A stretch of DNA of 47,204 nt, taken from positions 1-47,204 of the forward strand of contig CANQXV010000002.1 of the NCBI GenBank assembly GCA_947627895.1. Direction: 5' to 3'. Under the pieces are notes generated by a model that saw only the letters and a list, made by a program, of their open reading frames with translations, had not been told where the DNA came from and did no database searches. A program made the position numbers and the translations under genes. This document shows positions 6,602-26,231 of the stretch, one piece after another; the stretch's first letter is position 1; each line of letters begins with the position of its first letter. This stretch comes from an uncultured Bacilli bacterium. GTDB lineage: Bacteria; Bacillota_I; Bacilli_A; RF39; UBA660.

Positions 6602-6835
6602 TCCTCCTTTAAATAAAAAAATTCATAAACTTTTAGTTAAGGACGAACTTTCTAATCCGCGGTACCACCTTAGTTTATGAATTAATCATACACTTTAAAT
6701 TATAAGGGATTTATCCCGATTTTACTCCCCAAGTGAAATTCATTTTATTAATATTTAAAACACTCTCACCACTTATGTTTTTCTCTTTATAAAGGGATTA
6801 ATAAAACTACTAAATCCTGGTTCTTGGTAATTTCG
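6602..6835 (-). promoter_or_regulatory. T-box leader (Phe-specific) with terminator/antiterminator
   Basis: The minus strand carries the T-box core AGGTGGTACCGCGG (6657-6670). Terminator arms TTCATAAACT/AGTTTATGAA (about 6672-6682 and 6621-6632) are followed by TTTTTTT. Candidate specifier UUC-A is at about 6734-6737. GGTGAGAG and AGAGA-like stem I elements are present. Confidence 0.85.
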
Positions 6836-6872: not shown

Positions 6873-7334
6873 TTAATCGCAAATTCCTTCTAAACGTTCT
6901 TGTTCATCTTTAAATTCTGAATATAATAATGTTTGATCATCGCCTTCAAAGTCTTTAGTTGCATCAATTTCATCACCAATAGCATATAATAACATTAATT
7001 CATCTTCATCTTTTTCCAAAATTTTACTTACATTGGTATTAAGCATGTCATTATAAGCCTCTCTACTTGTGAATTTATATTGACTTACATTTTGCATTGT
7101 TACAATTCTGTCATCTTCAACTTTCATATAAGTAATCATATTTAATGAATAACTAGCATCTGGTAAATCCATTTGCATTTCACATTTTTTATCATATTCT
7201 GAAAAACTATAATGTTCTTTCTTTTCTCCAGATTTACCCTTAATTACTAAAAAGTAAACTGCCAAAACAATAATTAAAATAACAACTATAATAATTAAAA
7301 TTATAGGTAACATTTTATTTTTAGTTTTTTCCAT
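6873..7334 (-). CDS. Single-pass membrane protein, last gene of the Tad-like operon
   Basis: N-terminal TM LPIILIIIVVILIIVLAVYFLVI followed by an acidic extracytoplasmic domain. SD AAAAGGAAGAG. No recognisable family. Confidence 0.6.
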   Translation of the reverse strand: MEKTKNKMLPIILIIIVVILIIVLAVYFLVIKGKSGEKKEHYSFSEYDKKCEMQMDLPDASYSLNMITYMKVEDDRIVTMQNVSQYKFTSREAYNDMLNTNVSKILEKDEDELMLLYAIGDEIDATKDFEGDDQTLLYSEFKDEQERLEGICD

Positions 7335-7389
7335 ATCAACTCTTCCTTTTCTTAATTCGATTATAACATAACCATTTTCTAAAGTAAAT

Positions 7390-8376
7390 TTATTTTAAAT
7401 CAGGTAAATCTATCTCAAAATCATCAGTATCTTCTTCAAGCCTAATTATCTTTTCAACTTGACTTACTTCTTTTGGGTCTTCTATATTTTCTTTTTTTAT
7501 TTCTGGCAAATCGTTATTTGAGGTTTCCTCTATTATTTCTGAAGCCAAAGCTGGATTTATTACTAATTCAGATACATTATGTGGTTCTTCAATTACCCCA
7601 TTTTCTTTTGCCAGATTAGGTAAACTATCATTTGTTAAAGCATCCGGTATAGGCATCACTGGCCCTATTACTTTTCTTTTCGTATATGGCAAATATAATT
7701 GCTTATGTAATATTTTTCCTAAAGGACTATTAACATCAATTGCTGAAGTTTGTTCTCTTAATTTTCGAATTAAAGATTTTAAAAGAATAAATAAAGCAAT
7801 ACATAAAATTATTAGAAGCAATCCCGTTGAACTGGCAACCATTGCTTGTAATCTTCCTAAACCAGGTATTTTTAAAGCAACTTTACCAATAATACTATTA
7901 AAATTTACCCAGCCGGTGTCTTCGATTGGATTATAATCACCCTTAGTTTGATAACTATAGGTTCCATCTTCATTTTTAATAATCGAAACAATCCGGTGCG
8001 TAATAGTCATTCCTTTAGTTTCTGGACTATTTGAAATAAAGGTAATAACATCACCTATTTTTAAGTCCTCGGGATCATCTATACGTACATCAACAATTAC
8101 ATCATATACTTTAATATTCGGTGTCATACTTCCGCTCATAATGGAATATAGAGAATATTTAGGTTCAAAATTTCGACCAAAAGCGGAGAATAATTTAGTC
8201 GCTACAAAGTAATAAATAAGGAATGAAGCACATAATAAAAGCAACACAAATAAAGTCCAACTAATAATAGTTGAAATTAAATGAAGGATTTCTTTAGGAT
8301 TTGTTGCTGATTTTATGCTTTTTTCCACATTCCTACACTTCCCTATTGTATATTTATTATATCCAATAAAACCCAA
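7390..8376 (-). CDS. sipW: SipW/archaeal-ER-type signal peptidase I (S26B) with second TM and about 130 aa acidic C-terminal tail
   Basis: Motifs SGSMTP (catalytic Ser box), GDVITF, THRIV (His box) and TKGDYNP..D. TM before the catalytic domain and TM LLLIILCIALFILL after it. The ORF start is a TTG without SD. An in-frame GTG at about 8328 preceded by GGGAAG may be the real start. Confidence 0.8.
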   Translation of the reverse strand: MGFIGYNKYTIGKCRNVEKSIKSATNPKEILHLISTIISWTLFVLLLLCASFLIYYFVATKLFSAFGRNFEPKYSLYSIMSGSMTPNIKVYDVIVDVRIDDPEDLKIGDVITFISNSPETKGMTITHRIVSIIKNEDGTYSYQTKGDYNPIEDTGWVNFNSIIGKVALKIPGLGRLQAMVASSTGLLLIILCIALFILLKSLIRKLREQTSAIDVNSPLGKILHKQLYLPYTKRKVIGPVMPIPDALTNDSLPNLAKENGVIEEPHNVSELVINPALASEIIEETSNNDLPEIKKENIEDPKEVSQVEKIIRLEEDTDDFEIDLPDLK

Positions 8377-8421
8377 AATAGCAATTAGCTACATGAAAAA
8401 AAAGTCCATTTTTGAACTTTT

Positions 8422-9210
8422 TTAGAGACCCATTAGTTTTAAGACGGCGAAGATTAATAAAATCATTAATCCTAAACCAGTGGTGATTAACATACTCATA
8501 GTTTTACCTTCCATCTTTTCTAACCGGTTTTTATATTTAGTTTCCCGTGCTTTTTGTTGTAAAGATGATATAGTTCTTGAAAAAGCAAGAATTTGTTCTT
8601 GTTTTCTTTCTTGACGACCTAAACTTAACCGATATAGGAGCCGCATCATCCGCATAGAATCTCGAACTGGATATTTTCTGGCAAATTCCATATATGGCTC
8701 AATGGTATCATCCCCAGAATTAATAGCATCAATCATTTCTCTTAATCCATCTCTAAATATTTCGGGAGCATCGGCCATACTTTTACCAATTGCAACAGGT
8801 ACTGTATAATGTTGAATTAAAATTTCCAAATTTTTTAAATAATACGGTAACATAGCATCAATAGTATTAATATGTCTAGCATAGTATTTTTTTATATCAT
8901 TATAAGGCATCTTAAAAACAAAGAACCCCGCGACAAAAACTAATAATAATTTAACACTATTAAAATCTTTTAATAAAAGGAATAATACCAATACCATAAC
9001 AATTAAAGCATTTTTAATTCTTTTATTAAATAAGATGTCGGGATTTGTCCCATTACCATACTTAGCCCGCACATAAAAATCCCAGTCACTTTCTTTCATT
9101 TTCATGAAAATCATTTGGTTATCAATAATTAATTGATTAATATTAATTTGACCAGTATACGCCATAATGAAGAAAATGATAAAGGCTAAAATAATAATCT
9201 CTGGTTGCAT
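8422..9210 (-). CDS. TadC-like inner-membrane platform protein (T2SSF-like topology)
   Basis: N-terminal TMs, a central helical soluble domain of about 130 aa, and a C-terminal TM. TAATG coupling to the upstream paralogous-looking gene. Located directly after the CpaF-like ATPase. Confidence 0.55.
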   Translation of the reverse strand: MQPEIIILAFIIFFIMAYTGQININQLIIDNQMIFMKMKESDWDFYVRAKYGNGTNPDILFNKRIKNALIVMVLVLFLLLKDFNSVKLLLVFVAGFFVFKMPYNDIKKYYARHINTIDAMLPYYLKNLEILIQHYTVPVAIGKSMADAPEIFRDGLREMIDAINSGDDTIEPYMEFARKYPVRDSMRMMRLLYRLSLGRQERKQEQILAFSRTISSLQQKARETKYKNRLEKMEGKTMSMLITTGLGLMILLIFAVLKLMGL

Positions 9211-10115
9211 TATTCTACCCCCACATCTGCATTATAGTATTTTTCTCCCGATAGAAGAAACAATGCGTTTATAATTACAATGGCATGCAAAATGATTTGA
9301 ACATACCATATATCTAGCAAGGATATATAATTTTCTTCACCTAGTAAGAATCTTAAAACAACTACTAATAAAAATAACATTAAACCAAATTTAATAAACC
9401 GACCATGGAAGTTTTTTCGATCCATTTGATCGCGATAGACACCTTCAACTAAGGCATCAATATCCATAGACATATTTTCTAGAGATTCCCCTGAATCCTT
9501 GGCTCCTTCTTGAGTAATTTGTAAAAACAATTGATGCATATTTTTAACCATGTAATAAGGATATTTTTCATTAAAGTATTCTAGCGATGCATTAATCGTC
9601 CCATTTTGATAAGACATATCAATCATCTTTTTAACATCATCTAAAACAGGGTTTTCTAAAATTCCAGAATCTCGAACTCCTTCCAAAGATTTAACAAAAC
9701 TTTGAGTGGTATTAAATTCCATAATAACATTGGTCGTATAAGTTTGAATTTGTTCAAAAACATATTCACTATAAATTCTTTGACATCTTAAGAAAGCCAA
9801 ATATGGAATAAAGGAAATAGTAATTGCCGCATAAATAATGGCTATAATAATACTATAAAAGTAAAAATAACCAATTAAACCTGCAAAGCCCCCCATTAAG
9901 ATAGCTTGAACTAAATATTGCCGAGCATTATATTCTTGCCCTAATTCCACAGCTTTTTCCCGAACTGTTTTAAATGAATAAGGAGCATAACTATCATATA
10001 TTTTTCCAACACTTGAAATAATAAATTGATAAACATTTTCACCCGGATTTTTGCGATATAAAAAGACAAAAAGGGCTATAAATATTAAAATTATAAGTTC
10101 TGTGAATGTTTGCAT
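9210..10115 (-). CDS. TadB-like inner-membrane platform protein (T2SSF-like topology)
   Basis: Same architecture as 8422-9210 (N-terminal TMs, central helical domain, two C-terminal TMs). SD AGGAGGGA. 11 nt after the ATPase gene. Confidence 0.55.
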   Translation of the reverse strand: MQTFTELIILIFIALFVFLYRKNPGENVYQFIISSVGKIYDSYAPYSFKTVREKAVELGQEYNARQYLVQAILMGGFAGLIGYFYFYSIIIAIIYAAITISFIPYLAFLRCQRIYSEYVFEQIQTYTTNVIMEFNTTQSFVKSLEGVRDSGILENPVLDDVKKMIDMSYQNGTINASLEYFNEKYPYYMVKNMHQLFLQITQEGAKDSGESLENMSMDIDALVEGVYRDQMDRKNFHGRFIKFGLMLFLLVVVLRFLLGEENYISLLDIWYVQIILHAIVIINALFLLSGEKYYNADVGVE

Positions 10116-10126
10116 ATTAATCCCTC

Positions 10127-11242
10127 CTATAAACTTTCTATAGTCATATTTCCAGCTGGTATTTCTTCATCAGTTCCAATATCATCACTTGCTACAAAAT
10201 AATGTGGGTCTAATTCTACACCCTGAACACCTAAATACTCAATTAAATACTTACTTGGATTATGAAAATCAAAAGTACCATCTAATCTTTTTTTAAATAT
10301 AATATTAGAGCAAGCATGGTTTTTATCATCAACATAAAATTCTACAACTTCAATAATTTCTCTTTGAAACCGGCCTAATTCCTTACTCATATAACCTTTA
10401 ACATGCACCCCAATTTGAACATATCTATGAATGGATGTTAAAAATTGTTCAATATCAATGTTATTTTCTAGCAAACTATATAACCGCATAGGAATATTTA
10501 AGGCCCTATCAGAGTGAATAGTTGAAATAATATTGTGCCCAGATGAAATAGAGTTACGAACTGCCATAACAGCTTCAGCACTACGAACTTCGGATAGTAA
10601 AATCCATTTTGGGTTTTGCCGCATGCAAGTTACTAAAACATCCGTATAGGAAGCAATATTATTCGTTTTTACCGCAACGATATCACGATGGGGAAATATT
10701 TTATCTAAGTGTAATTCCAAAGTATCTTCAACTGTTATTATTTTTTCATTTTCTTTCGTATGACTCGCTAAATATTTTACCAGTTCCGTTTTCCCAGAAC
10801 CAGTTTCCCCACTGACAATAATATTGCAGTGCCCTTCTACACATGTCATTAAAAAATCATGAAGATTTTCGGTAACGTATTGTTCATTTAATAATTTTTC
10901 TTTATTTAACCGGATTTTGGCAGGGGTTTTTCTGATAGTACAAGAAATTCCATTCGTAGCAATGGAATCATGGATAAAGTTAAGCCGTAATTCAGCAGAC
11001 TCAGCATCCAAAAAAGGATGAGCCATATTAAATGACTTACCCATTACGTTAGAACATTGAAAAGCCAGCTTTTCCATCAAAGCATTATTTATTTCTGGCC
11101 TTTCAACCCGATACACACCTTTATCAAGAGTTTTTAGATGAACTTGACCATTATTCGAATAAGAAATATCGGTTACATTATCATCTTCCAAAAACTCTTT
11201 TAAAGGCCCAAAATCAATTTGTGAAAATATGGTATCATTCAC
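10127..11242 (-). CDS. cpaF: CpaF/TadA/VirB11-family secretion ATPase (T2SSE superfamily)
   Basis: Walker A VSGETGSGKTE, Asp box ITVEDTLEL, Walker B WILLSEVR and His box TIHS in the canonical order and spacing. GTG start with SD AGAGGTGA. Confidence 0.85.
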   Translation of the reverse strand: MNDTIFSQIDFGPLKEFLEDDNVTDISYSNNGQVHLKTLDKGVYRVERPEINNALMEKLAFQCSNVMGKSFNMAHPFLDAESAELRLNFIHDSIATNGISCTIRKTPAKIRLNKEKLLNEQYVTENLHDFLMTCVEGHCNIIVSGETGSGKTELVKYLASHTKENEKIITVEDTLELHLDKIFPHRDIVAVKTNNIASYTDVLVTCMRQNPKWILLSEVRSAEAVMAVRNSISSGHNIISTIHSDRALNIPMRLYSLLENNIDIEQFLTSIHRYVQIGVHVKGYMSKELGRFQREIIEVVEFYVDDKNHACSNIIFKKRLDGTFDFHNPSKYLIEYLGVQGVELDPHYFVASDDIGTDEEIPAGNMTIESL

Positions 11243-11264
11243 AAATAGTCACCTCTTTTTTATT

Positions 11265-12032
11265 TTAATATGATACTTGTTCTGAACGAGATTGAATAAA
11301 TTCAACTAACCGCATACTACCAACGGATGTTTCCCCAGCAGCATCAGTATAATTCCGTCCTCTTGGAACTGGGAATAATTCAACTCCGCTAATATTTTTA
11401 GCACTTGTTAGCAATAAGTGTTGTTCATCAATTAAACCAAATATTAATAAAGCCGGAGTTCTAGTTGTGTTAGAATCAAACACATTTTGATTTTGACTAT
11501 CTTTAACCGCTAAAACCTTAGCGCTTTCAAGTAACTTACCTACTAATATTGTTCCATTATCATTTGCTCGCATATAGATATCAACATAACTTCCTGGATA
11601 AATAGAGTTACCAAAAGTAGTCTTATTATTAACATCTAATTGGAAAGGAGCATATCCCTCTGGTAAATCATCATAATCAGATCCTGGTAGATCTTCAAGT
11701 TTAACAACTTGGCTAGAATAAAATAATCCACCTTCAGGAATAGATGTACCAACATTAACATAGTAACCAATTAATTTGTTAGCATCAGTAATAATACTAA
11801 TATTATTTAAAAATTCACTACTAATTTCAATATACTTAATATCTTCTTTCGTTATTTGCGTTCTGGCTGTAATAGCGTGTTCCGCATAGGGTACTTTAAT
11901 TGGGCTAACCGCTTTATTAACTCTGTAATTATAAAATACCCATAGCACTATAACACCAGCCAATATACCAAGAATAGTTACCGTATTTTTATTAGCGATA
12001 AATTTTTTTATTGTATTGATTAAATTTCCCAT
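11265..12032 (-). CDS. cpaB: CpaB/RcpC-like pilus assembly protein (N-terminal TM plus SAF-like domain)
   Basis: TM VTILGILAGVIVLWVFY. SAF-like segment AITARTQITKEDI. C-terminal beta-rich region with AKVLAV...ALLIF, as in CpaB. Immediately upstream of the ATPase. Confidence 0.7.
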   Translation of the reverse strand: MGNLINTIKKFIANKNTVTILGILAGVIVLWVFYNYRVNKAVSPIKVPYAEHAITARTQITKEDIKYIEISSEFLNNISIITDANKLIGYYVNVGTSIPEGGLFYSSQVVKLEDLPGSDYDDLPEGYAPFQLDVNNKTTFGNSIYPGSYVDIYMRANDNGTILVGKLLESAKVLAVKDSQNQNVFDSNTTRTPALLIFGLIDEQHLLLTSAKNISGVELFPVPRGRNYTDAAGETSVGSMRLVEFIQSRSEQVSY

Positions 12033-12047
12033 TTTATTCTTCTCCTT

Positions 12048-13778
12048 CTATACAGCACTCCAGAAGTAATCACCAGCATTGCTAGTTACACATTTAATTC
12101 GTTGATGACATGAAGTAGGGTGATCACATGATTTATTAGTATCATTATCTTCGAAATGCCACCATTCACTTGAAATTGTTTTTAAACCAGCATTAACCAT
12201 ATAACTAGCAAGCTTTTTTGCAAAATCATTATTATTTTTCTTTGAAGCAGCAGCACTTAATTCATGCATATCGGTTGGCATTGTTGCACCTTTTATTGAT
12301 ATATCAACAGCACAACCCGTATTATGAGCAGAAGGACCAGTCGATAAGTACCACCCTAATGCATACGGATTCATCGCTGCTTGTACTTTGGTATTACCAT
12401 AATATAAACTATTATAAGCTTCATATAATTTTTGAGTTACACCCCTAGGCCGATATGCATCATATACAACTAAAGTATAACCATCATTTCGAGCACTTTG
12501 AGCGGCTTGTTTTAATTGTTTAGCAAATGAATACACTCCTATTGGCCGATAGTCATTTGAATATAATTTTTTATTTTTTATACTTGAAGGTGAGAAAGTT
12601 TCTCCTTTATAAGTCGTTTTATATTGACTACTATAAGTATTATATATATCAAACTCTACTAAACCTTTTAAATACTCTGACATATCAATAGCCGCATAAG
12701 TGTCGGTCCGCATCCAACCGCATTTTTCTTGACCATTACTAGTATATTTAACTGCCCACCATTCAATATTATTAGCGCCATTACGTGAGCCTAAAATTTC
12801 ATAAATATTTCCAGCTTTTATAGTATCAGTTGGGTTTTGAGTTGACCAGTCTTTATAAATTCCAACTCCTGCCATAACTGTACCATGAACACCTTCTAAG
12901 GTTCGAGATTGGATATTTTCTTCATCAGGAAGACATGATTGAGGAACATTTCCAGCTTTATTTGTTTTGAAACTTCCTGTTATTACAGGAGATACATTAC
13001 CAGCTTCATCCTTAACATAAGCCTTAAAATTATAACTAGTATCAGGACTTAAACCATTAAATGTAAATGTATTATTACTACTACTTTCATAATTAGAACC
13101 ATTGTCTTTACTAACAAAATATTCTGTAATTTTACTACTACCAGCCGTTTCAACAACATGAACGGTTATAGAACTATCTGTTACTTCTGTGCTTTCTATT
13201 TTATTAGCAGTTGGTCCTTCGGTACTAGGGTTAGTAACAGAAGGGTTTTCTGTCGTTGTCCCTTCGGTACCTGAACCAGGTGTCGTTGTACCTGGTTGAG
13301 TATTTTCTTCTGTTCCTGGAGTTGTTGTTCCACTACTACCAGAAGAAGGATTTTCATCCGTGATATTAGGATCTAAAACATTACCTTCTAAAATTGTATC
13401 GATTCTATTTACAATATCAAATGAGGTTGAATCACCTACAACAGTGAAACTTCCCGATTTTCCTTTTACCTCCACACTAGCCTTTGGTGGTGCTTCATAC
13501 ACATCATAGAAATTAATTGTATATGTCGTTGTTAAAGATGCATTTTCTGCGAATCTTCTAATGAAACTTTCAAAGAATTTTTCCTTATTTATTTTTATTT
13601 CGCCATATTGACGATAATAGGCGAAGTCTACGGCATCTACCATAGCTGCTTCGGTTAATTCTTTTACCAAGAAATAATCTTGTTGGTTATTAGTTGTAAC
13701 ACTTTGTACTAATAACATTATTACAACAATGAAAACACCTAATAATATTAACCAATAAGTCCAAAAAGCATTTTTCAC
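12048..13778 (-). CDS. Membrane-anchored multidomain protein: pilin-like N-terminus, Thr/Gly/Pro linker, FN3, SH3b-like, VanX-type M15 D-Ala-D-Ala peptidase
   Basis: TM WLILLGVFIVVIMLLV. Linker SSGSSGTTTPGTEENTQPGTTTPGSGTEGTTT. FN3 signature (ITVHV...LSPDTSYNFKAYVKDEAGNVS). SH3b-like segment (GNIYEILG...WWAVKY...GWM). M15 motifs YRP, SAHNTGCAVD and EWWHFE. Confidence 0.8.
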   Translation of the reverse strand: MKNAFWTYWLILLGVFIVVIMLLVQSVTTNNQQDYFLVKELTEAAMVDAVDFAYYRQYGEIKINKEKFFESFIRRFAENASLTTTYTINFYDVYEAPPKASVEVKGKSGSFTVVGDSTSFDIVNRIDTILEGNVLDPNITDENPSSGSSGTTTPGTEENTQPGTTTPGSGTEGTTTENPSVTNPSTEGPTANKIESTEVTDSSITVHVVETAGSSKITEYFVSKDNGSNYESSSNNTFTFNGLSPDTSYNFKAYVKDEAGNVSPVITGSFKTNKAGNVPQSCLPDEENIQSRTLEGVHGTVMAGVGIYKDWSTQNPTDTIKAGNIYEILGSRNGANNIEWWAVKYTSNGQEKCGWMRTDTYAAIDMSEYLKGLVEFDIYNTYSSQYKTTYKGETFSPSSIKNKKLYSNDYRPIGVYSFAKQLKQAAQSARNDGYTLVVYDAYRPRGVTQKLYEAYNSLYYGNTKVQAAMNPYALGWYLSTGPSAHNTGCAVDISIKGATMPTDMHELSAAASKKNNNDFAKKLASYMVNAGLKTISSEWWHFEDNDTNKSCDHPTSCHQRIKCVTSNAGDYFWSAV

Positions 13779-13796
13779 CTAAATGTCACTCCCTTT

Positions 13797-16700
13797 CTAT
13801 TTATATGATGGACCACCAATTACATTTTCATCATATCTATATTCTGTCCAAGGTTCCCAATAAGTACTACTTTGAACATTTTCATTTGATCTTTTTCCAG
13901 CTGGTACCCGACCGGATTTAATATGTTTAACAGCATCTGTTTTATCTATTAATTCATCAATAAATGTACTAAAACAGAACACATTTTCATGAACCCGATG
14001 TTCACTATCTTCATAATCATAACATTCAGTTGTAATGTTATTATATCCACCAACTTTTTGACTTTCTACTTCTTTATTGTAATCTAAGATAAAGTTTGTT
14101 GTATTAGGATCTAATTTAACCCTTAACTCTAAATGTGGATTATCCACTGAATCATCATAAATTGTTGTATTTGCCTCTTCAATATTAGTAATTGTTTCTT
14201 CAGCCTTTTCTCTAATTAATGAAAGTGAAGCAAGAGTTGAATTAATATTCCAGTTATAGCCATATTCTCGATCAACGGATTCGAAATTAGTTGGTGATAC
14301 CGGTTTAACATTAAATTGTAAATCACCTAAGTTATAAATACAGTTTACACATTCAATACCACAATCTGGGCATTCTTTCCAATAACAATACTCTCCTTCA
14401 CATTCGAAGTCACATGTTGGGCAATCTGAAGGGTTACATGTTGTGTAATAATGACATACATAATTACCATCCCATGATCCTTCACTAACACCTAGGGCAT
14501 TTGCCACACTAGAACTGACGTGATCACCATCGAAATCAACTAATCTACCTAAAGCAGCAGTATCATAAAATTCTCCTAAATCTTCAATATGCATTTTGAA
14601 AACTCCACCACCATAGGCATCAATTGAAAGTGGAAGACCACCATAAGTTGGATAATCTCCTACTGGTGAAAGTTGAACACCAGGACCAGTATAATCCTTA
14701 TTAGTTGTTATACCTCCACTGGCAGGACCACTTGATGAAACTTGATAAAATACTGTTGGTGTAATATATTCTTGTTCTACATCAAAATGTTGTTTTATAA
14801 ATTTAGCTTTTGATACTTGTTGCGTATCAGTTGTACATCCACTAGTTGTACATGTCGTATATTTGAAATCAGCGAACATTGTATCTATACTTGTCCAGCC
14901 TGTTGAACAATCATTATCACCAAATTGATTATTAACATTGCCTTCACAAGCTTGGATTTTTTGATCAATTGTTATATCATCCACTGGTACTAAATATTTA
15001 TCTTCATCTGATACCATATCATAATATTGTTGATCATATTCCCAATAAATTTTTGGATCAAAATTGAAATCGTTAGTCCAATCTTTTGTACATGAATTGT
15101 AATTTTTAATAATGTTTTCATATTTAGTTTTAGCAGAATCTAAATCAGATTTAGCAGATTCAATATCAGAATCAATTTCATCAGCCAAATCTTCTTTGCT
15201 ATCGGCTGGACCATAGCTAAAACTACCGGCAGCTGGTTCGGTTGAAACATAACCAGTTGTTCTATTAGAATCAGCAGTTTGGATTCCTGAATAAGTTCCT
15301 GATGTTGAATATTCCCATTTTAGGCATGAGCCTGTGGTATCTTCAACCTCTTTTTCTACACCATTTTCATCTTTTATTTTTATCGTAGGATATTCCGCAC
15401 AAGACTCATCAACTTCTCCATTGCTAGCAGCTGTAGCTTCTAAATAATCATTATAAGCATCAATAAATGCTTTTTGGGCATCAATTATATCGTTAATATA
15501 TTTTTCTTGATCTATTGATTTATCGGCTGTATTTGCAGAACCACGATAACAATCCATGCTTCCTTTAATCGTGGATTTTAATTTAAAATATCCACCACAA
15601 TTAATTTTATCTAATGCTTTATTTAATGAAATTTCCCGATAATCTTCTTTACAGAAGGTACCACAATATTCATTATTTACCCCACCAAGGTTTTCTTCTA
15701 ATTTATAAGAGTTACCAGCGTCATCTTTATTATTGATAACACATTTTTTAATATCTGTAGGAGCTGTTATAGAAGCCTTACCATCTTCTTCTTCAGAACA
15801 TACAGGAGTTTCTAAAGTAGTTTCGCAACTTAATCCTAAACATGCAATACCATTAATAGTGTATTGTAATTGCTTATCATTATTATCATTATTGCCCGCA
15901 ACGTAGTTATTAGGAACAACACCCAAATATCTTTGTGTACCTGATGATATATTATCATCTAATAAAGCGATTGAAACATCTGCAGTTTCTGGAACATAGT
16001 AATTTAAAACAATATTTGCATCACAATTTTCAGATTCTGTTTCATTTTTACTAAGAGTAATTTTTAATTTAACATTACCATTTTCATCCATGAATTTAGA
16101 AATATCTATTCTAGAAGTTAATTCTTTCCATTCACCATTTTCACTATATTCAACTTTTTCAATGGCTACACCATTTTTTTCACAATTATTGCACACAATA
16201 TCTGAACGGCCAATTTTTACATAGCCATCTTCATCTTTAGTTATTTTGAAATTAACAATCTTTTCTTCATGATTTCTATCAGCAGCTTGCCCATTAGTAA
16301 CATTAATACCAACTTCTGTATTATTACTTATACCACCATTATTTTTAAATTCATAAGCAGCATCAATACCCATTCTAATTAGATTTTTAGCTTGATCAAG
16401 CACGCTTCCGCCTGAAAAAGATGTCCCTTTTGATGGCTTTTTAACATTAACACCTATAGCAGATAATTTATCAGCATTTTCTTGGGCCATTTCATATCCT
16501 AAGTTCATAACAGCATACTTAGCAGCAACCATGTTTGCATCGCCACTATAATCGTTATCTTCAAGACCCATAATAGCATTATAATATGCTCTTACTGCAA
16601 TGTCTGTGGATACAATTAAAGTTTTACTATCACGTCTAGTTTTACCACCATTGGCTAAAATTGTATATAAACCATAATATTGAGCACGAAAATTAATATC

Positions 16701-17006
16701 TTTCGTAGTATCATTAAAGTTATATACTTGTGTAACCTTAACAGTTGTGCCTGGTTTATTATTACTATCAGCTGGGTCTACGCAGTACATTTTAATTTCT
16801 TTGTTGCCTGAGGTACCGTAATAGTTCCAAACATTATAATCTTGGCTACCAGCTTTTACACCTAAACCACTAGCTAAATTATTATGCGATTCCCAATGAA
16901 ACGTGTACTTATCGCCAACAGTATATGCAGCTTTTACACTATTAATTCCTACTCCTAAAGTAAGTGATGTTAAAATTAATAAGAATAAGATTTTTAATTT
17001 TCTCAT
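13797..17006 (-). CDS. Large secreted Cys-rich protein, unknown family
   Basis: Sec signal MRKLKILFLLILTSLTLGVGINSVKA/AY. No LPXTG and no C-terminal TM. Many Cys, including a dense CxxC module at about nt 14340-14465. ATGA overlap with the upstream gene. Confidence 0.75.
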   Translation of the reverse strand: MRKLKILFLLILTSLTLGVGINSVKAAYTVGDKYTFHWESHNNLASGLGVKAGSQDYNVWNYYGTSGNKEIKMYCVDPADSNNKPGTTVKVTQVYNFNDTTKDINFRAQYYGLYTILANGGKTRRDSKTLIVSTDIAVRAYYNAIMGLEDNDYSGDANMVAAKYAVMNLGYEMAQENADKLSAIGVNVKKPSKGTSFSGGSVLDQAKNLIRMGIDAAYEFKNNGGISNNTEVGINVTNGQAADRNHEEKIVNFKITKDEDGYVKIGRSDIVCNNCEKNGVAIEKVEYSENGEWKELTSRIDISKFMDENGNVKLKITLSKNETESENCDANIVLNYYVPETADVSIALLDDNISSGTQRYLGVVPNNYVAGNNDNNDKQLQYTINGIACLGLSCETTLETPVCSEEEDGKASITAPTDIKKCVINNKDDAGNSYKLEENLGGVNNEYCGTFCKEDYREISLNKALDKINCGGYFKLKSTIKGSMDCYRGSANTADKSIDQEKYINDIIDAQKAFIDAYNDYLEATAASNGEVDESCAEYPTIKIKDENGVEKEVEDTTGSCLKWEYSTSGTYSGIQTADSNRTTGYVSTEPAAGSFSYGPADSKEDLADEIDSDIESAKSDLDSAKTKYENIIKNYNSCTKDWTNDFNFDPKIYWEYDQQYYDMVSDEDKYLVPVDDITIDQKIQACEGNVNNQFGDNDCSTGWTSIDTMFADFKYTTCTTSGCTTDTQQVSKAKFIKQHFDVEQEYITPTVFYQVSSSGPASGGITTNKDYTGPGVQLSPVGDYPTYGGLPLSIDAYGGGVFKMHIEDLGEFYDTAALGRLVDFDGDHVSSSVANALGVSEGSWDGNYVCHYYTTCNPSDCPTCDFECEGEYCYWKECPDCGIECVNCIYNLGDLQFNVKPVSPTNFESVDREYGYNWNINSTLASLSLIREKAEETITNIEEANTTIYDDSVDNPHLELRVKLDPNTTNFILDYNKEVESQKVGGYNNITTECYDYEDSEHRVHENVFCFSTFIDELIDKTDAVKHIKSGRVPAGKRSNENVQSSTYWEPWTEYRYDENVIGGPSYK

Positions 17007-17764
17007 AAATCAAGACTCCTTTTTCTTTTAACTATCACAACTACTGCAACCCCCGCTACAATAACTAGAGCAGCTCCACCGCCAATAAAATAATATTTGT
17101 TATCAGCAATAAAGTCCATTATTCTTTTCCATAAACTATTGTCATATTCATTCGCATTGATGCCTTGATTCCTTTTGTTGGTTAAATATTCGGTTATTTG
17201 TTCTAAAAAATTTATTTGTTCAACATAATCGAACGTTACATATTTTTGACATAAATTAAATTCTGGAGCATCCGTACATAATGCATAATCATAATATTCA
17301 TTAAATCTTGGTAACTTCAGCGTTATCGTTCGCATTAATTCATTTGGACAACCGGTATTTTCACTAGTATAAACTTTAATTGTAAAGTTTGTTACTTGCT
17401 CCAAATTTCGCCAAGGAAACGTAATAATATCATCCGTACTATTACTATTATTATACCGAACCCTTTCCTTATCATAATCATTTGTTACTTCAATATAAAA
17501 TTTGTCCGTAATATTTGAAACCGAAATGTCAAAATAATTGACTTTAGGAGGATCTATCTCTGTTGTCTCATCACCTGCATCTGGAAATCCATATATACTT
17601 GGATCCAAATCTTCTTCCATTTCTTGATTCATTGCTCTTATATTGCCTGCTGCAGTTCTAAGTTCTGCTTGTTCCGAAGTTGAACATACACTTGCAGCCC
17701 CAACATTACTAACAAAAATCACACTAATCAAGAAAGCAAATATTACTTTTAGAAATCTTTGCAT
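17003..17764 (-). CDS. Type I membrane protein (signal peptide plus C-terminal TM anchor), first gene of the Tad-like operon
   Basis: Signal FLISVIFVSNVGA/AS. C-terminal TM GGGAALVIVAGVAVVVIV followed by KRKRS. SD AGGTGG. Confidence 0.7.
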   Translation of the reverse strand: MQRFLKVIFAFLISVIFVSNVGAASVCSTSEQAELRTAAGNIRAMNQEMEEDLDPSIYGFPDAGDETTEIDPPKVNYFDISVSNITDKFYIEVTNDYDKERVRYNNSNSTDDIITFPWRNLEQVTNFTIKVYTSENTGCPNELMRTITLKLPRFNEYYDYALCTDAPEFNLCQKYVTFDYVEQINFLEQITEYLTNKRNQGINANEYDNSLWKRIMDFIADNKYYFIGGGAALVIVAGVAVVVIVKRKRSLDL

Positions 17765-17872: not shown

Positions 17873-18532
17873 ATGAAAATTAGCAAATATCTTAACTGTT
17901 TTAAGGGTTTATTAATTTACTTAATCTTAAGCCCTTTTTTAGAAATTATCATTAGTCGCATTATCCATCCGCATGGCTTTTGGTTCTCAAATATCGCTAA
18001 TCTCATTGCCCCCGTCATTACAACATTAGTTCTAGTCATTGTCTTTCAAGATTTTTTTAAGGAGAAGTTCAAAGATTTTCAAAAAAATTGTAGCCAATAT
18101 CTTTCCTTAATTATAAAGTATTGGTTAGTAGGTTACATTTTCATGACTATAACTAATCTTTTAATAAGCTCTATCACTGGAAATATTGCCATAAATGAAG
18201 AAAATAATAGAACTTTGCTTAATAGTTTACCACTTTATTCCATAATTTCAACTATTTTTTTAGCCCCCATCTGCGAAGAACTGGCTTTTAGGGCATCTTT
18301 TAAGGGAATTTCCAAGAATAAAAATGTGGCTTGTTTAATTAGTGCCATTGCTTTTGGCTTAATGCATGTAATTTTTAATGGTGACTTTTTACATTGCATT
18401 CCTTATGCATTCATGGGTTTCTTTTTAGCCAAATCTTATTTTGAAACTGACAACATCCTTTGTTCCATTTTGATGCATTCGTGGCATAACTTATTTTGTA
18501 TAATATTATTATTTTTAGGAGATACGATATGA
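17873..18532 (+). CDS. CPBP (CAAX-like) intramembrane glutamic protease family protein
   Basis: Polytopic protein with motifs EELAFR, FGLMHV and HSWHN in the canonical order. Confidence 0.85.
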   Translation: MKISKYLNCFKGLLIYLILSPFLEIIISRIIHPHGFWFSNIANLIAPVITTLVLVIVFQDFFKEKFKDFQKNCSQYLSLIIKYWLVGYIFMTITNLLISSITGNIAINEENNRTLLNSLPLYSIISTIFLAPICEELAFRASFKGISKNKNVACLISAIAFGLMHVIFNGDFLHCIPYAFMGFFLAKSYFETDNILCSILMHSWHNLFCIILLFLGDTI

Positions 18533-19350
18533 AAAAAATATTTTTCTTAATTTTAGTTTTAATAGCTTTAGTTATTTTATATGGGGCATTTATTGAACCT
18601 TATTCTTTAAAAGTAAATGAAATACCTATTTCTAGTTCTAGTATTTCAACTTCTTTTGATGGTTTTAAAATATTACATTTTTCAGATCTTTTATATGATG
18701 AAAACACTAAAGAAAGCACTTTAGAAAATATTGTTGCTAAAATAAATGAACAAAAACCCGATATTATTATATTTACGGGTGATTTAATAAGTCGTAATTA
18801 TACTTTAAATAACGATGAACAAGAAAAACTAACTACTATTTTAGAAAAGTTAGAAGCAACATTATATAAATATGCCATAATTGGTGATAACGATAATTCT
18901 AAATTAGATATGTATAAAGAAATAATGGATAATGCTAATTTTAAAATTCTTAATGATAATAAAGAATATGTTTTCTATCATGATACAAATCCCATAAAAC
19001 TCGTTGGCATAACTGATACTGATAATATAAGTGATGCGTTAACTGATGAAGAAGAAATAACCCCCGTTTATACAATTGGGCTTACACATTATCCCGATAA
19101 TATTGATAAAATGCTAGATTATCCCTTTGATTTAATTCTATCAGGTCACTACACGGGGGGAATTGTTCGTATTCCTTTCTATGGACCAATATTTAATAAA
19201 GAACATGTCGGTAATTATAAAGAACCATATTATAAAGTAAACGATACTAATATTTATATTTCTAATGGTTTAGGTAATGAAGACTTTACCTTTAGGTTAT
19301 TTAATACCCCATCCATCAATTTATATCGTTTAGAAAAAGCAGAAGACTAG
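18529..19350 (+). CDS. Membrane-anchored calcineurin-like metallophosphoesterase homolog (YkuE/COG1408-like) with substituted metal ligands
   Basis: Start moved to the ATG at 18529 (SD AGGAG, ATGA overlap with the CPBP stop). Motifs read as HFSDLL, FTGDL, IGDNDN, LTHYP and SGHYTGG, versus the canonical DxH, GDxxD, GNHD, H and GHTHGG. Confidence 0.7.
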   Translation: MKKIFFLILVLIALVILYGAFIEPYSLKVNEIPISSSSISTSFDGFKILHFSDLLYDENTKESTLENIVAKINEQKPDIIIFTGDLISRNYTLNNDEQEKLTTILEKLEATLYKYAIIGDNDNSKLDMYKEIMDNANFKILNDNKEYVFYHDTNPIKLVGITDTDNISDALTDEEEITPVYTIGLTHYPDNIDKMLDYPFDLILSGHYTGGIVRIPFYGPIFNKEHVGNYKEPYYKVNDTNIYISNGLGNEDFTFRLFNTPSINLYRLEKAED

Positions 19351-19352
19351 CC

Positions 19353-20219
19353 TTATTTCTTTAAAGCTAGTCTTTTAATATAAAAATCGGTATTAGGAAC
19401 TTGAAAAGCATACATGCGATACTTTTTGGCTAGTTTATATAACTCATCTTGCATATAAAAACCTTCATCAGTAGGACTAAGAGTAGATGCTACTTTATTT
19501 TTAAATTCTTCGTCCTCTATTCCTAAGATATTAAATATTTCTGTTAAAGTAATTGTTCCTTGTGGCGTTTGGACTCCAATCGAATTTAAATCAATATTAA
19601 AAATAAATAAGAAGATTAAATAAACTAAACTGACCTTATCAAGTTCTGGTGAAAAATGATTTTCCCAGGGCATAAATTTTGGATTTTGCATAAAGTAATT
19701 AATATCACCAAGGGATGTTGAAGTCATAATAGTACGGTCTTCTATTCCTACTTGCATTCCATCATAATCAACAAAGCAGATCTCACCACCCGGTTTAACC
19801 ATAATATTATCGAGTGTTAATAAATCCGGGATGACTATTCCCACCCTATTAGCCTTTATTACGATATTTTCAATTTGGGAATATAAAAAATAATAAAAAT
19901 TTAAATCACTTCTTTGTATTAAACTAAAGGTCTGTTCATATTGATTTAAATTACAACCTGGTACATATTCCATGGTATAACCACAACAAAAACTCTTATC
20001 ATAAACTATACTTTGAGGCCCCACGATATCTTTTAAACCTAAAGTGCTTTTTCTATATAACCTACTTTCATAATCACATCCCGCGACCCGATTAACATGA
20101 TGCAAAAATGGTTTAATTTGTTTAAAAATACGACCGTCAGCAAGAGTATATAAAATAGCATTATCACCCTGATACATTATTTGTTGTTTTTTTAAATCGC
20201 TGATATTTTCTCTTAACAT
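19353..20219 (-). CDS. Atypical protein-kinase-like fold protein
   Basis: Start moved to the ATG at 20219 (SD AGAGGGA). Kinase-like elements are RIFKQIK (beta3 Lys), GYTMEYVPG (hinge), IPDLLTLDNIMV (catalytic-loop D..N), FVDYDG (DFG-like) and DKVSLVYL. Confidence 0.5.
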   Translation of the reverse strand: MLRENISDLKKQQIMYQGDNAILYTLADGRIFKQIKPFLHHVNRVAGCDYESRLYRKSTLGLKDIVGPQSIVYDKSFCCGYTMEYVPGCNLNQYEQTFSLIQRSDLNFYYFLYSQIENIVIKANRVGIVIPDLLTLDNIMVKPGGEICFVDYDGMQVGIEDRTIMTSTSLGDINYFMQNPKFMPWENHFSPELDKVSLVYLIFLFIFNIDLNSIGVQTPQGTITLTEIFNILGIEDEEFKNKVASTLSPTDEGFYMQDELYKLAKKYRMYAFQVPNTDFYIKRLALKK

Positions 20220-20274
20220 AATTTTCCCTCTTTTTAGCAAAGTTATTTTATTAAAAAGTATTTCAAAAGTCAAA

Positions 20275-22116
20275 TTATATTTTTAAGCCCCCTAAATTAT
20301 TTTCTTCTTCAAAATCCATACCTGATAGTACATACTCCGTCATATTATTTAAAAATTGACCTTTTTTAAGTTTATAATCTTTCTTATGAATAACTACGAT
20401 TGGTAAGCCGCTTCTTTTAGCTTCTTCTAAACTAGCCTCATCAATAATATCAAAACAGATAATATAATCCGGCTTAACTTGTAAAAATTTATTAGTTTTC
20501 GCATCATACTCATTCTTAATTTGAATTTCATTCATAACCCCAGATGCAAGTATTTCCTCTGGTCTTTGAATCCTATTAATATAAGGTGTTACTCCTCCAT
20601 TTAGGGAATCTCCGCTTCCCGCATCTCTTTCTAAAACATGAGCAACATTTGCAATATTAAAGTTCTTAAAACCATATATTAAACTTCGTTCATTAAAAAC
20701 ACTAAGGTTAGTTGAACCAATTAAACTATAGCATTTCCGATACCGATGAGCAAAATCATTTTTTAAAGGTCTTTGACAACTAACAAGGGCCATAAAATCT
20801 TCTCCTTTTAATTCGTAAACATCCATGCCTAAAGATTTAGACAAATTGCTATTTTTCAATTCAGCATGATGATCTAAATCTAAACAACTTTCTTTTATTT
20901 GTTGGTAAGAAGCATTTTTGCTTTTGCGCATGGCATCATAAAACATTGCCATAAGACCCACAGTTTTATATTGTTCATAAAAAATCATAATTTCTTTACT
21001 ATCGCTATTTAATAAATCTAAAACTTGGCTAAATAATTCTACCTCTTCCGTTGTTAATATTTCATCTTTAGAGGCTTCATTATAATTTAACATTTCGTTA
21101 ATATTTAGAAACACATTTTTTAAAGTATCGCCAAAAAGGCGGTTCATAACTAAATTAAGAATCAACTTCTTTGTCGCTTGTTCTGGAGTTATTCTAGAAT
21201 AATAACTATAGAAGCCTTTAAGATAGTTACTTAAAAGGGAATTATCATCCCGAGGAGCTTTAATGGTATTTGTTACTTCATCAAAAGATGTAAGTAAGGA
21301 GTCCATTAAATTTTCTTTTTGCATCTTTAAATAACTAACATTATTATGTTCCCCTAAAGAGGCAATTGTCTCATCCATTTTACTAAAAGTTAAAGCCATA
21401 ACATACCGTTTAAAAAAATTAGAATTTTCGAAATACTCTTTAGGAACCGAAAAACGATGCATTAAATTAAAAACATTACCATCAGTTAAACCCAGTGAAT
21501 TATTTTTGACATAATCTTCGCCTATTTGAGGATCCAAAAAATCTAATAAACGCACTTTAGTATCGTTATTTTCTATTCCATCTAAAAATCTTTTTTGATC
21601 TTCTTTACTTATGTTTGTTGCCAAAAAATTTAAAACAATTAATTCTAAATAAATATTATTGGCATTCGCATAATTAATCAATTTTAAACAAAAATCAAAA
21701 TTAAAAATAAGTTCACTATAAATATATTGAGCTTGACTTAAAAAGAAATTTAAAAATTCTTCATTTGCAAATATTTCTTTTTGAAAAGATTCAACATCAC
21801 TTCTTATAAAAGCCAAAATATAAACATAAGATTTTTTATCTTGTCTTTGTTTTAGCCGTTCTAAAAATTCACCATGCATATATGGTAATAAATCTTGAAA
21901 AGAAAAAACACGTGTCACTTGCTCAAATTTCCAAATACTTGTATAAGCATCATCAAGTAAAAATAATTTATCTAAAAATTTAGGATCTTTTAAATAACTT
22001 AATTTAGTATTATTATCTATCTCACCTAATTTCATTATAAACTCATCATAAGGATATTCAAGTAAAGTTGTAGACGAAGGTACATTTAAAGGTTCTAAAA
22101 ATTCAATATCATCCAT
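20275..22116 (-). CDS. Hypothetical 613 aa protein (helical N-terminal two-thirds, alpha/beta C-terminal domain)
   Basis: Long ORF with SD AAGGAG, no TM or signal peptide, and no family recognised by eye. The kinase-like gene follows 55 nt downstream. Confidence 0.6.
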   Translation of the reverse strand: MDDIEFLEPLNVPSSTTLLEYPYDEFIMKLGEIDNNTKLSYLKDPKFLDKLFLLDDAYTSIWKFEQVTRVFSFQDLLPYMHGEFLERLKQRQDKKSYVYILAFIRSDVESFQKEIFANEEFLNFFLSQAQYIYSELIFNFDFCLKLINYANANNIYLELIVLNFLATNISKEDQKRFLDGIENNDTKVRLLDFLDPQIGEDYVKNNSLGLTDGNVFNLMHRFSVPKEYFENSNFFKRYVMALTFSKMDETIASLGEHNNVSYLKMQKENLMDSLLTSFDEVTNTIKAPRDDNSLLSNYLKGFYSYYSRITPEQATKKLILNLVMNRLFGDTLKNVFLNINEMLNYNEASKDEILTTEEVELFSQVLDLLNSDSKEIMIFYEQYKTVGLMAMFYDAMRKSKNASYQQIKESCLDLDHHAELKNSNLSKSLGMDVYELKGEDFMALVSCQRPLKNDFAHRYRKCYSLIGSTNLSVFNERSLIYGFKNFNIANVAHVLERDAGSGDSLNGGVTPYINRIQRPEEILASGVMNEIQIKNEYDAKTNKFLQVKPDYIICFDIIDEASLEEAKRSGLPIVVIHKKDYKLKKGQFLNNMTEYVLSGMDFEEENNLGGLKI

Positions 22117-22201: not shown

Positions 22202-22957
22202 GTGAATTATCAAAGTGCTATTTCCTTTGGTTTAGTAAATATTCCCGTTATTTTAAACTCCGCGATTAAAGATAATAATGTAACCTTTAATCTTTTACAT
22301 AAAAAATGTGATACGAGATTAGAATTTATTAGATATTGTCCCCATTGTAATAAAAAAGTAACTAATGATGAAATAGTTAAAGGTTACGAATACACGGATA
22401 ATTCTTATATAACTTTTAGTAATGATGAATTTGCTAAATTAAAAGACCAAAATGATAAAACGATTGAAATAATTGCCTTTGTTGATTTAAAAGAAATTGA
22501 TCCCGTTTATTATGATAAAAGTTATTGTCTTACGCCTAATAAAAGTGAAAAAGCTTTTGAATTATTAAAAGAAGCTTTACGCCAAAGTGGTAAAGTTGCT
22601 ATTGCAAAAACTTATCTTCATAACCGACTTTACTATGTTGCCATTCGTTTTGGTTATAAAAATATTATTATGAATACTTTATATTATGAAGAAGAGGTAA
22701 AACTCCAAAAAGAAAAAAATAAGCAAACTTTTAGTGACCAAGAATTAAAAATGGCGATGAAATTAATTGATAACTTAACTACGAAATTTAAACCGGAAAA
22801 TTATAAAGATGAATATCAAAATAGGATTAAGGAAGCAATTAATAAAAAAGCAAAGGGGCAAAAAGTAAAAACAGTGAAACATAAGAAAACTAAATCCATT
22901 GATGATTTATATAAAGCTTTAGAAGCCTCTTTAAAAGGAAAAAATGAAAAAAAGTGA
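22202..22957 (+). CDS. ku: Ku protein (non-homologous end joining)
   Basis: N-terminus AISFGLVNIPV, the KGYEY segment and a Lys-rich C-terminal tail are typical of bacterial Ku. GTG start with SD GGTGA. Confidence 0.9.
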   Translation: MNYQSAISFGLVNIPVILNSAIKDNNVTFNLLHKKCDTRLEFIRYCPHCNKKVTNDEIVKGYEYTDNSYITFSNDEFAKLKDQNDKTIEIIAFVDLKEIDPVYYDKSYCLTPNKSEKAFELLKEALRQSGKVAIAKTYLHNRLYYVAIRFGYKNIIMNTLYYEEEVKLQKEKNKQTFSDQELKMAMKLIDNLTTKFKPENYKDEYQNRIKEAINKKAKGQKVKTVKHKKTKSIDDLYKALEASLKGKNEKK

Positions 22958-26197: not shown

Positions 26198-26231
26198 ATG
26201 TATCACCTTACTATTTTAAAAGCATTATATC

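Follow-up and report, generated by a model that had tools for sequence, protein, structure and literature searches.

The question raised by the stretch of DNA given above, a 47,204-nucleotide (nt) contig of an uncultured low-GC gut Bacilli bacterium that was analysed in its entirety and is called the window here, is what kind of envelope machine is encoded by the crowded block of genes between positions 6873 and 17764, and what that machine handles. The original prediction had read this block as a single nine-gene operon for a machine derived from tight-adherence (Tad) pili, in which a SipW-type signal peptidase and a 153-amino-acid (aa) protein act as partners, and in which a giant cysteine-rich protein or SipW-processed subunits are assembled or exported rather than pili. 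We consider it rather probable that the seven genes at 8422-17764 form the assembly core of a Tad-like (type IVc/archaeal-type) filament machine that is highly diverged and specific to one lineage, the uncultured low-GC gut Bacilli (probably the GTDB order RF39), with its pilins encoded elsewhere and with sipW and the 153-aa gene as neighbours. The locus represents a Tad-like pilus system of a monoderm, strongly diverged and furnished with accessories of its own lineage; it is pilin-less and rearranged here, and is not a categorically new secretion system. The analysis supported the prediction of a Tad-type, CpaF-driven monoderm core that brings along a wall hydrolase and a giant exoprotein rich in Cys, and did not support sipW and the 153-aa protein as its accessory partners.

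The open reading frames (ORFs) of the minus strand were listed and their proteins were subjected to Pfam, NCBIfam and PDB profile searches. Nine ORFs, all on the minus strand, occupy 6873-17764, and the listing bore out to the exact coordinate the nine co-directional ORFs and both start/stop overlaps claimed earlier, namely a 4-nt overlap at 17003-17006 between the genes for A253 (the leading, 253-aa protein) and the giant protein, and a 1-nt overlap at 9210 between the TadB-like and TadC-like genes. The intergenic gaps between the first seven genes, read from 17764 to 8422, are 11-22 nt. The gene after them, sipW, appeared to follow at 45 nt because its ORF had been extended to the first possible start; its orthologues begin near an in-frame GTG at 8328, which makes the gap from the TadC-like gene 93 nt. 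This gap contains a promoter-like TTGCTA-17-TATAAT at 8384-8356, and an extended -10 promoter-like site stands at 7388-7360 before the 153-aa gene. Promoter and terminator scans of this AT-rich DNA gave counts similar to those of shuffled sequence, and just these two sites were used, as weak support. Because of the 93-nt gap and the promoter-like sites before sipW and the 153-aa gene, a seven-gene unit (8422-17764) is implied and a nine-gene operon is not.

The identity of the system can be deciphered from its relatives, which were found first through the DUF5411 protein of the core and then by scanning a one-genome-per-species collection with the alignment of the TadB-like protein. The scan gave 410 confirmed relatives, in at least 410 species-level genomes. 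The seven core genes stand in unchanged order in the inspected loci, so the gene order proposed for a search in other genomes recurs as a set of seven and not as a set of nine. Among the 80 loci kept and listed from the 410, nearly all belong to uncultured gut metagenome-assembled genomes labelled Bacilli, Mollicutes, Tenericutes or "Mycoplasma sp. CAG:472", and a few are labelled Muribaculaceae, Agathobacter or Erysipelotrichaceae. Every ORF of 87 loci was classified with jackhmmer, and 73 loci were informative in having enough downstream sequence. The canonical order is Rce1-like (divergent)–A253–giant protein–DUF5411–CpaB (one or two copies)–ATPase–TadB-like–TadC-like–pilin (two)–minor pilin (one or two)–330-aa protein–small proteins with two transmembrane segments (2-TM proteins). 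Pilin genes come immediately after TadC in 64 of the 73 informative loci, and since the loci continue with the pilin block in this manner, the ancestral system is, as judged from gene order, a pilus machine. The same co-occurrence makes A253, the giant protein and DUF5411 regular companions of pilins and not substitutes for them, and it runs counter to the proposal that the giant protein or SipW-processed subunits are exported "rather than pili".

The pilins of the relatives are 68-98 aa long, begin with MKEATGELNMTVV… and are without a Pfam match; the N-terminal stretch MKEATGELNMTVVTVVAIAA is almost invariant and is followed by a short Cys-rich tail. Their genes lie at L004:15434-15954, at L006:9600-10106 and at about 140 further places in related loci L013-L171. 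The pilin leader, MKEATG/ELNMTVV…, corresponds neither to the Flp motif (G/XXXXEY) nor to that of type IVa pilins (G/FTLIE). No A24 peptidase was found in the related loci; the Rce1-like protease, which keeps its position in 32 of them, could be a candidate pilin-processing enzyme. The minor pilins measure 145-180 aa, begin with MRE..G.TW… and are without a TadE match. The 330-aa protein is without a Pfam or PDB sequence match, and hence its identity as TadZ is positional only. The small 2-TM proteins of about 115-145 aa that come after the 330-aa gene are present in one to six copies in most loci (L004:18039-18449; L006:11714-12571), with larger versions of 250-460 aa in some, and show a weak likeness to T4SS_pilin PF18895 (E 0.003).

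In the window itself, the motor is the only component not labelled a "hypothetical protein" in public data. The T2SSE check (PF00437) proposed for it was passed at 1.3e-29; its best PDB relatives are CpaF (2.3e-18) and FlaI (1e-17), aligned over residues 3-256 and therefore across both domains. It carries the T2SSE domain without a Zn-finger insertion, by which the TadA/CpaF-family ATPase of Tad systems is recognised. In NCBIfam the VirB11 model TIGR02788 scored highest (116.8 bits) and the TadA-family model reached 102 bits, every equivalog cut-off being missed; the SpoIIIAA model was not among the 24 NCBIfam matches of the ATPase. For the CpaB-like protein, of which relatives have one or two copies, the anticipated SAF/RcpC-CpaB match was obtained in part: RcpC PF16976 (7.9e-6, 26.2 bits) and TIGR03177 (2.1e-10, 40.3 bits) both matched, each short of its curated cut-off of 28.8 and 71 bits, respectively.

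The two platform proteins were approached through fold and remote homology. For the TadC-like protein, an alignment of diverse relatives from a whole-library HMMER search gave an AlphaFold2 (AF2) model with a predicted local distance difference test score (pLDDT) of 91. Its cytoplasmic helical domain was matched by Foldseek to SpoIIIAB (6bs9, probability 1.0) and to EpsF/GspF (2vmb, 3c1q and 2vma, probability 0.80-0.95), with template modelling (TM) scores on the target of 0.58-0.68 and weak E-values of 0.1-2.4. Fusion proteins of about 500 aa from other lineages have a TadC-like C-terminal half, and their N-terminal half is matched by the TadB-like profile; one such fusion shows a weak T2SSF match (E 0.0018). 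An initial hhalign comparison of the TadB-like with the TadC-like family was not significant; with the fusion sequences added, it gave P 1e-4, a probability of 58% and 145 collinear columns. The TadB-like protein can accordingly be regarded, with moderate confidence and on profile comparison, as a distant paralogue of the TadC-like protein, and a GspF fold is assigned to the pair, again with moderate confidence, from fold and remote homology only. Family profiles of both proteins gave nothing meaningful against PDB sequences. The TadB-like family comprises more than 8000 clusters at 90% identity that are without Pfam domains and are named at most "hypothetical protein"; close relatives saturated the homologue search with its alignment, and remote or annotated matches were not among its results. 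The genomic context of one sequence, P0024, at the end of a contig from a spore-former, was uninformative.

The 576-aa protein unites DUF5411 (9.1e-55, aa 1-132) with Peptidase_M15 (5.7e-14) and fn3 (3.9e-6) domains in Pfam, VanY being matched also. The zinc-site motifs SAHNTGCAVD and EWWH, as read from the sequence, are intact in the M15 domain. The architecture claimed earlier, FN3-SH3b-VanX-type M15, is thus upheld for fn3 and M15/VanY, and SH3b went undetected by Pfam; the DUF5411 N-terminus had been overlooked. DUF5411 is mostly a standalone protein of about 135 aa in the relatives and elsewhere is fused variably to M15, M23 or C39_2. Its N-terminus, MKE(A/S)(Y/F)WGYW followed by a hydrophobic stretch, resembles those of the pilins and minor pilins. 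In L017 (12339-13913), L020 (12317-13834) and L044 (a 514-aa ORF) the M15 domain is borne by a minor pilin and not by DUF5411, which suggests that the two are interchangeable carriers of the peptidase. We propose that DUF5411 would act as a membrane-anchored, pilin-like carrier presenting the hydrolase at the machine. Since a PBP5-type carboxypeptidase and BacA are encoded in the window, the organism has peptidoglycan.

The two leading genes of the core encode exported proteins. A253, which leads 63 related loci, has a Sec signal peptide, four invariant or nearly invariant cysteines (C27, C139, C163 and C172, conserved at 98-100%), a C-terminal transmembrane (TM) anchor and a basic tail. A GG_III-CTERM sorting signal was considered for A253 and rejected, the motif not being kept beyond close relatives; its match to NF041738 (22.8 bits) is probably not meaningful, given that the GGG motif is kept in close relatives only. 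The giant protein carries 31 Cys in its 1069 aa, with a dense CxxC-rich stretch at about aa 860-905. Its homologues occupy the same position in 66 loci, range over 1000-1840 aa and 29-86 Cys, and share the C-terminus …VIGGP(A/S)WK-COOH (13797-13830 in the window) despite rapid divergence elsewhere. The giant protein evolves fast, with a ratio of non-synonymous to synonymous substitution rates (dN/dS) of 0.39-0.61.

The absence of pilins from the window locus is a feature of its clade. Neither the window nor the relatives closest to it (L011/L002, L008 and L012) have the block from the pilins to the 2-TM proteins at the locus, and sipW occupies the place of this block. The seven ORFs are all uninterrupted in four or more species of this clade, within which the ATPase is 93-94% identical. 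At a dS of about 1, dN/dS is 0.05-0.07 for the ATPase, about 0.06 for the TadB-like and 0.04-0.09 for the TadC-like protein, as compared with 0.095 for pheS; the motor genes are more constrained than pheS, and the exposed proteins evolve at about 0.2-0.55, above the motor genes. Strong purifying selection on the motor indicates that the core is functional, and because this selection is so strong, the pilins of the clade are probably encoded elsewhere in the genome, as far as can be judged from sequence. The separation of the two modules can be seen directly in other genomes. Core-only loci occur in several other lineages, among them L064, where the pilins follow only after another 8 kb downstream. 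Conversely, in L135, L136 (8423-10996) and L137 (metagenomic) a block of pilin, pilin, minor pilin, minor pilin and 330-aa genes comes straight after the pair of Rce1-like and metallophosphoesterase genes, which thus keeps beside the pilin block where the core is absent, the seven-gene core not being present within 8-10 kb. As core-only and pilin-only loci show that the modules separate, pilins located elsewhere are the most economical reading.

The predicted SipW assignment was confirmed by TIGR02228, with 89.6 bits against a cut-off of 51.85; the NF046067 SipW model gave 82 bits, below its 190. The motifs SxSMxP, THR and GD are intact. The proposed partnership of SipW and the 153-aa protein with the system was not sustained by the comparison of loci, sipW standing directly after TadC in no more than 4 of the 73 informative loci and the 153-aa gene having a counterpart in none of the 87 classified loci. 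Orthologues of sipW that are 47-62% identical and share its acidic C-terminal tail are found upstream of (SDF)-pheS-pheT in other genomes, where no Tad gene stands within 10 kb, and L009 and L010, of the same clade as the window, have no sipW after TadC. In L008, sipW is bounded by TadC and by uvrA-lgt, and in L006 it is uvrA-lgt that comes after the pilin block. Given the pheST synteny without Tad genes, the two loci without sipW and the 93-nt gap with its promoter-like site, sipW is probably a housekeeping neighbour encoding a general signal peptidase I and not a dedicated component. No TasA/camelysin-type (Peptidase_M73) substrate was detected among the nine proteins with Pfam or NCBIfam. 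The matches of the 153-aa ORF in these two collections are sub-threshold and driven by its TM segment.

Several observations weigh against a pilus-machine core with distant pilins. No pilin-like ORF, minor pilin or TadZ-like protein is encoded anywhere in the 47-kb contig, and no Peptidase_A24 (TadV) was found in Pfam scans that covered the window ORFs of at least 90 aa other than pheS and pheT and a few that overlap on the opposite strand; we therefore infer, and do not observe, that these subunits exist in the window genome. The T2SSF match (PF00482) anticipated over 8422-10115 failed, both Pfam and NCBIfam being negative for the TadB-like and TadC-like proteins at E<0.01; the Foldseek E-values of the TadC-like protein are weak, as given above, and the AF2 model of the TadB-like protein was unusable (pLDDT 52, from a low-diversity alignment of 32 sequences). 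The pilin-likeness of DUF5411 lies in its N-terminal pattern only, hhalign giving 12% probability against the minor pilins, too low for a pilin call. The TadC-sipW adjacency, moreover, is retained in four species and in two contexts, pheST (window and L011) and uvrA (L008), and could reflect selection rather than chance. Such points can also be read as favouring a Tad-derived motor that has become pilin-independent and assembles or exports the giant protein, A253 or SipW-processed subunits, with the DUF5411-M15 protein opening the wall. That the motor is under strong purifying selection without adjacent pilins, that the pilin/TadZ block is absent from both locus and contig, that sipW takes its place even where the uvrA-lgt flank of pilin-bearing loci follows, and that A253 and the giant protein carry classical AXA signal peptides which a SipW-type enzyme could cleave would all agree with it. 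We nevertheless hold this explanation to be unlikely: A253, the giant protein and DUF5411 accompany pilins in the great majority of informative loci, sipW orthologues adjoin pheST in genomes without nearby Tad genes and are missing after TadC in L009 and L010, none of the nine proteins is a SipW substrate of the TasA/camelysin type, and the core-only and pilin-only loci elsewhere amount to a plain unlinking of modules. To our knowledge, CpaF/TadBC motors handle N-terminally membrane-anchored pilins and not Sec-released soluble proteins. Quite doubtful, too, is a pilin-free envelope machine in which the DUF5411 peptidase anchor serves as the only pilin-like substrate and works alongside the giant protein and a SipW peptidase, the latter recruited in place of the pilin/TadZ block.

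Two further explanations can be set against the filament-machine core and carry far less weight. The ATPase, whose top NCBIfam match is to VirB11, together with the T4SS_pilin likeness of the relatives' 2-TM proteins, could point to a VirB11-type conjugation or type IV secretion system (T4SS) that belongs to a Gram-positive mobile element and is equipped with a wall hydrolase of its own, wall hydrolases being typical of Gram-positive T4SS. Here too a point against a Tad assignment is contained in the ranking of the models, yet the VirB11 score is far under the model cut-off of 250 and restricted to the C-terminal domain of the ATPase, whereas CpaF and FlaI match both domains; VirB4, VirD4/coupling protein, relaxase and integrase were all missing from the Pfam scans of window ORFs of at least 90 aa, a CpaB-like protein and putative GspF-fold platform proteins are present, the chromosomal context is fixed across hundreds of species, and DUF5411 gave no match against plasmids. 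A VirB11-type apparatus is, in our estimate, very improbable. The lack of pilin, minor-pilin and TadZ-like genes might also mark a decaying remnant, in which the pilins were lost and what is left of the core no longer functions and is itself being lost; with none of the seven ORFs broken in four or more species of the clade and the ATPase, TadB-like and TadC-like genes evolving more slowly than pheS at a dS of about 1, decay is largely refuted and is hardly credible as an account of the locus.

If the assembly-core reading holds, a mechanism may be sketched from what is known of the protein families. The CpaF/FlaI-type hexameric ATPase would drive the two GspF-fold platform proteins, which would lift membrane-embedded pilins with short leaders from the bilayer into a fibre, and the single-pass CpaB-like protein may stabilise or extend the apparatus outside the membrane. 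The DUF5411 module would hold the fn3 spacer and the M15 peptidase outside the cell, where local cleavage of peptidoglycan peptide stems could let the apparatus or fibre cross the wall. A253 and the giant protein would be Sec-exported, fast-evolving surface components and might, more speculatively, act like PilY1 as a tip or adhesin complex. The sipW gene and the 153-aa ORF would have been placed beside the core by rearrangement, and the SipW enzyme, as a general signal peptidase I, may also happen to process A253 and the giant protein.

The features of the locus and its flanks are collected in Table 1. The pheS and pheT genes downstream were recognised from the window translation and from Pfam domains of the L002 orthologues. 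The T-box leader of pheS scored 88.1 bits (E 7e-20) against an Rfam gathering score of 93 and was missed at the default threshold because its score lies just under it.

Table 1. Genes and other features of the locus and its immediate flanks (window coordinates).
Feature	Coordinates	Strand	Basis or remark
A253, Sec-signal-peptide exoprotein, 253 aa	17003..17764	-	First core gene; no Pfam match
Giant secreted Cys-rich protein, 1069 aa	13797..17006	-	Position and Cys content; no Pfam or PDB match
DUF5411-fn3-M15 peptidase, 576 aa	12048..13778	-	Pfam
CpaB/RcpC-like single-pass protein, 255 aa	11265..12032	-	RcpC and TIGR03177 below cut-off
CpaF/TadA/FlaI-clade secretion ATPase (motor), 371 aa	10127..11242	-	T2SSE and PDB matches
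TadB-like platform protein, 301 aa, polytopic	9210..10115	-	Remote paralogy and fusion proteins
TadC-like platform protein, 262 aa	8422..9210	-	AF2 and Foldseek
SipW-type signal peptidase I, 328 aa as listed	7390..8376 (likely start GTG 8328)	-	TIGR02228
Single-pass orphan ORF, 153 aa	6873..7334	-	Outside the conserved system
Rce1-like CPBP intramembrane protease	17873..18532	+	PF02517, 1.4e-16; divergent from the core
Metallophosphoesterase	18496..19350	+	After the Rce1-like gene; divergent from the core
T-box leader of pheS	6636..6834	-	RF00230; start of a separate pheST unit

Elsewhere the contig carries ordinary chromosomal genes, those for peptidoglycan among them. At 22202-23825 (+), adjacent genes for Ku (PF02735) and an ATP-dependent DNA ligase form a bacterial non-homologous end-joining pair in what is apparently a small-genome gut bacterium. 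At 24980-26206 (-) a 408-aa protein carries the ALK/LTK glycine-rich domain PF12810 (3e-36), a family named after animal receptor kinases. Three ORFs of 306, 613 and 692 aa at 19353-22116 (-) and 31518-33596 (-) are without a Pfam match at E<1e-5.

The lineage of the host, uncultured low-GC gut Bacilli, is common in human and animal guts and none of its members has been studied genetically; a Tad-type annotation offers a starting point for understanding adhesion, DNA uptake or interaction with the host in this lineage. DUF5411 gains a context as the hydrolase-carrying module of monoderm Tad-like machines. The window core without pilins and the L135-L137 pilins without a core amount to a natural experiment on the modularity of the machine. 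A pilin-independent, SipW-coupled machine, if true, would be much more interesting than the reading favoured here, and a pilin-free one, if true, would show in nature how a motor of type IV filaments can be turned to remodelling the wall or displaying proteins.

A literature search of limited reach found no description of this system, and its components invite comparison with several known ones. The SipW-TasA/TapA system of B. subtilis shares with the window a SipW-type (archaeal/ER-type) signal peptidase I; the TasA/camelysin substrate is missing here and the window sipW is syntenic with pheST, and SipW systems have neither the ATPase nor the platform motor that the window core has. SpoIIIAA-AB, as the window probably does, pairs a secretion-superfamily ATPase with a GspF-fold membrane protein, SpoIIIAB being the best Foldseek match of the TadC-like protein by probability. 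The window differs from SpoIIIA in that genes for SpoIIIAC-AH are not found here, the SpoIIIAA model is absent from the 24 NCBIfam matches of the ATPase, a CpaB-like protein is present and pilins occur in the relatives.

Two published predictions from gut Firmicutes come closer. Miller et al. 2022 predicted an uncharacterised secretion-related operon of 8-9 genes in Roseburia, Ruminococcus and Eubacterium, in which, as in the window, CpaF is combined with a membrane protein resembling PilC/GspF, a DUF5411 protein and a large protein of the cell surface (PMC9523054). Compared by description, it differs in being a computational prediction in Clostridia, a host lineage other than that of the window, and in its large protein, said to be InlB-like, a likeness undetectable here (PMC9523054); its pilin set and hydrolase fusions may differ as well. 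A 2024 paper described a divergent Tad-like cluster, recognisable mostly by structure only, in the uncultured, reduced-genome gut Clostridia order TANB77 (PMC11680825). It resembles the present system as a divergent Tad-like cluster of uncultured gut Firmicutes with CpaB, TadZ/CpaE, TadA, a TadB-TadC fusion and several pilin-like proteins, and differs in its gene set and order, the fusion of TadB and TadC, two ParA-like proteins and its lineage; DUF5411, a giant Cys-rich protein and A253 are not mentioned in that paper (PMC11680825).

The closest counterpart is the Tad/Flp (type IVc) family itself, as represented by Aggregatibacter tad, Caulobacter cpa and Bifidobacterium breve tad. The system departs from it in that its platform proteins, pilins, minor pilins and "TadZ" are undetectable by Pfam and NCBIfam models, that the pilin leader of the relatives (MKEATG/ELN…) is not of the G/XXXXEY type, that A253, the giant exoprotein rich in Cys and DUF5411, fused to a wall hydrolase or not, are additional conserved members, and that TadV is missing from the locus and pilin genes from the window. 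It agrees with Tad/Flp in the CpaF/TadA-type ATPase, the pair of putative single-domain platform proteins in B-then-C order, the CpaB/RcpC-like protein and, as in monoderm versions, a locus without a secretin. The relatives of the window add to this likeness, for their pilins are short, their minor pilins larger and the position of TadZ is taken by a gene.

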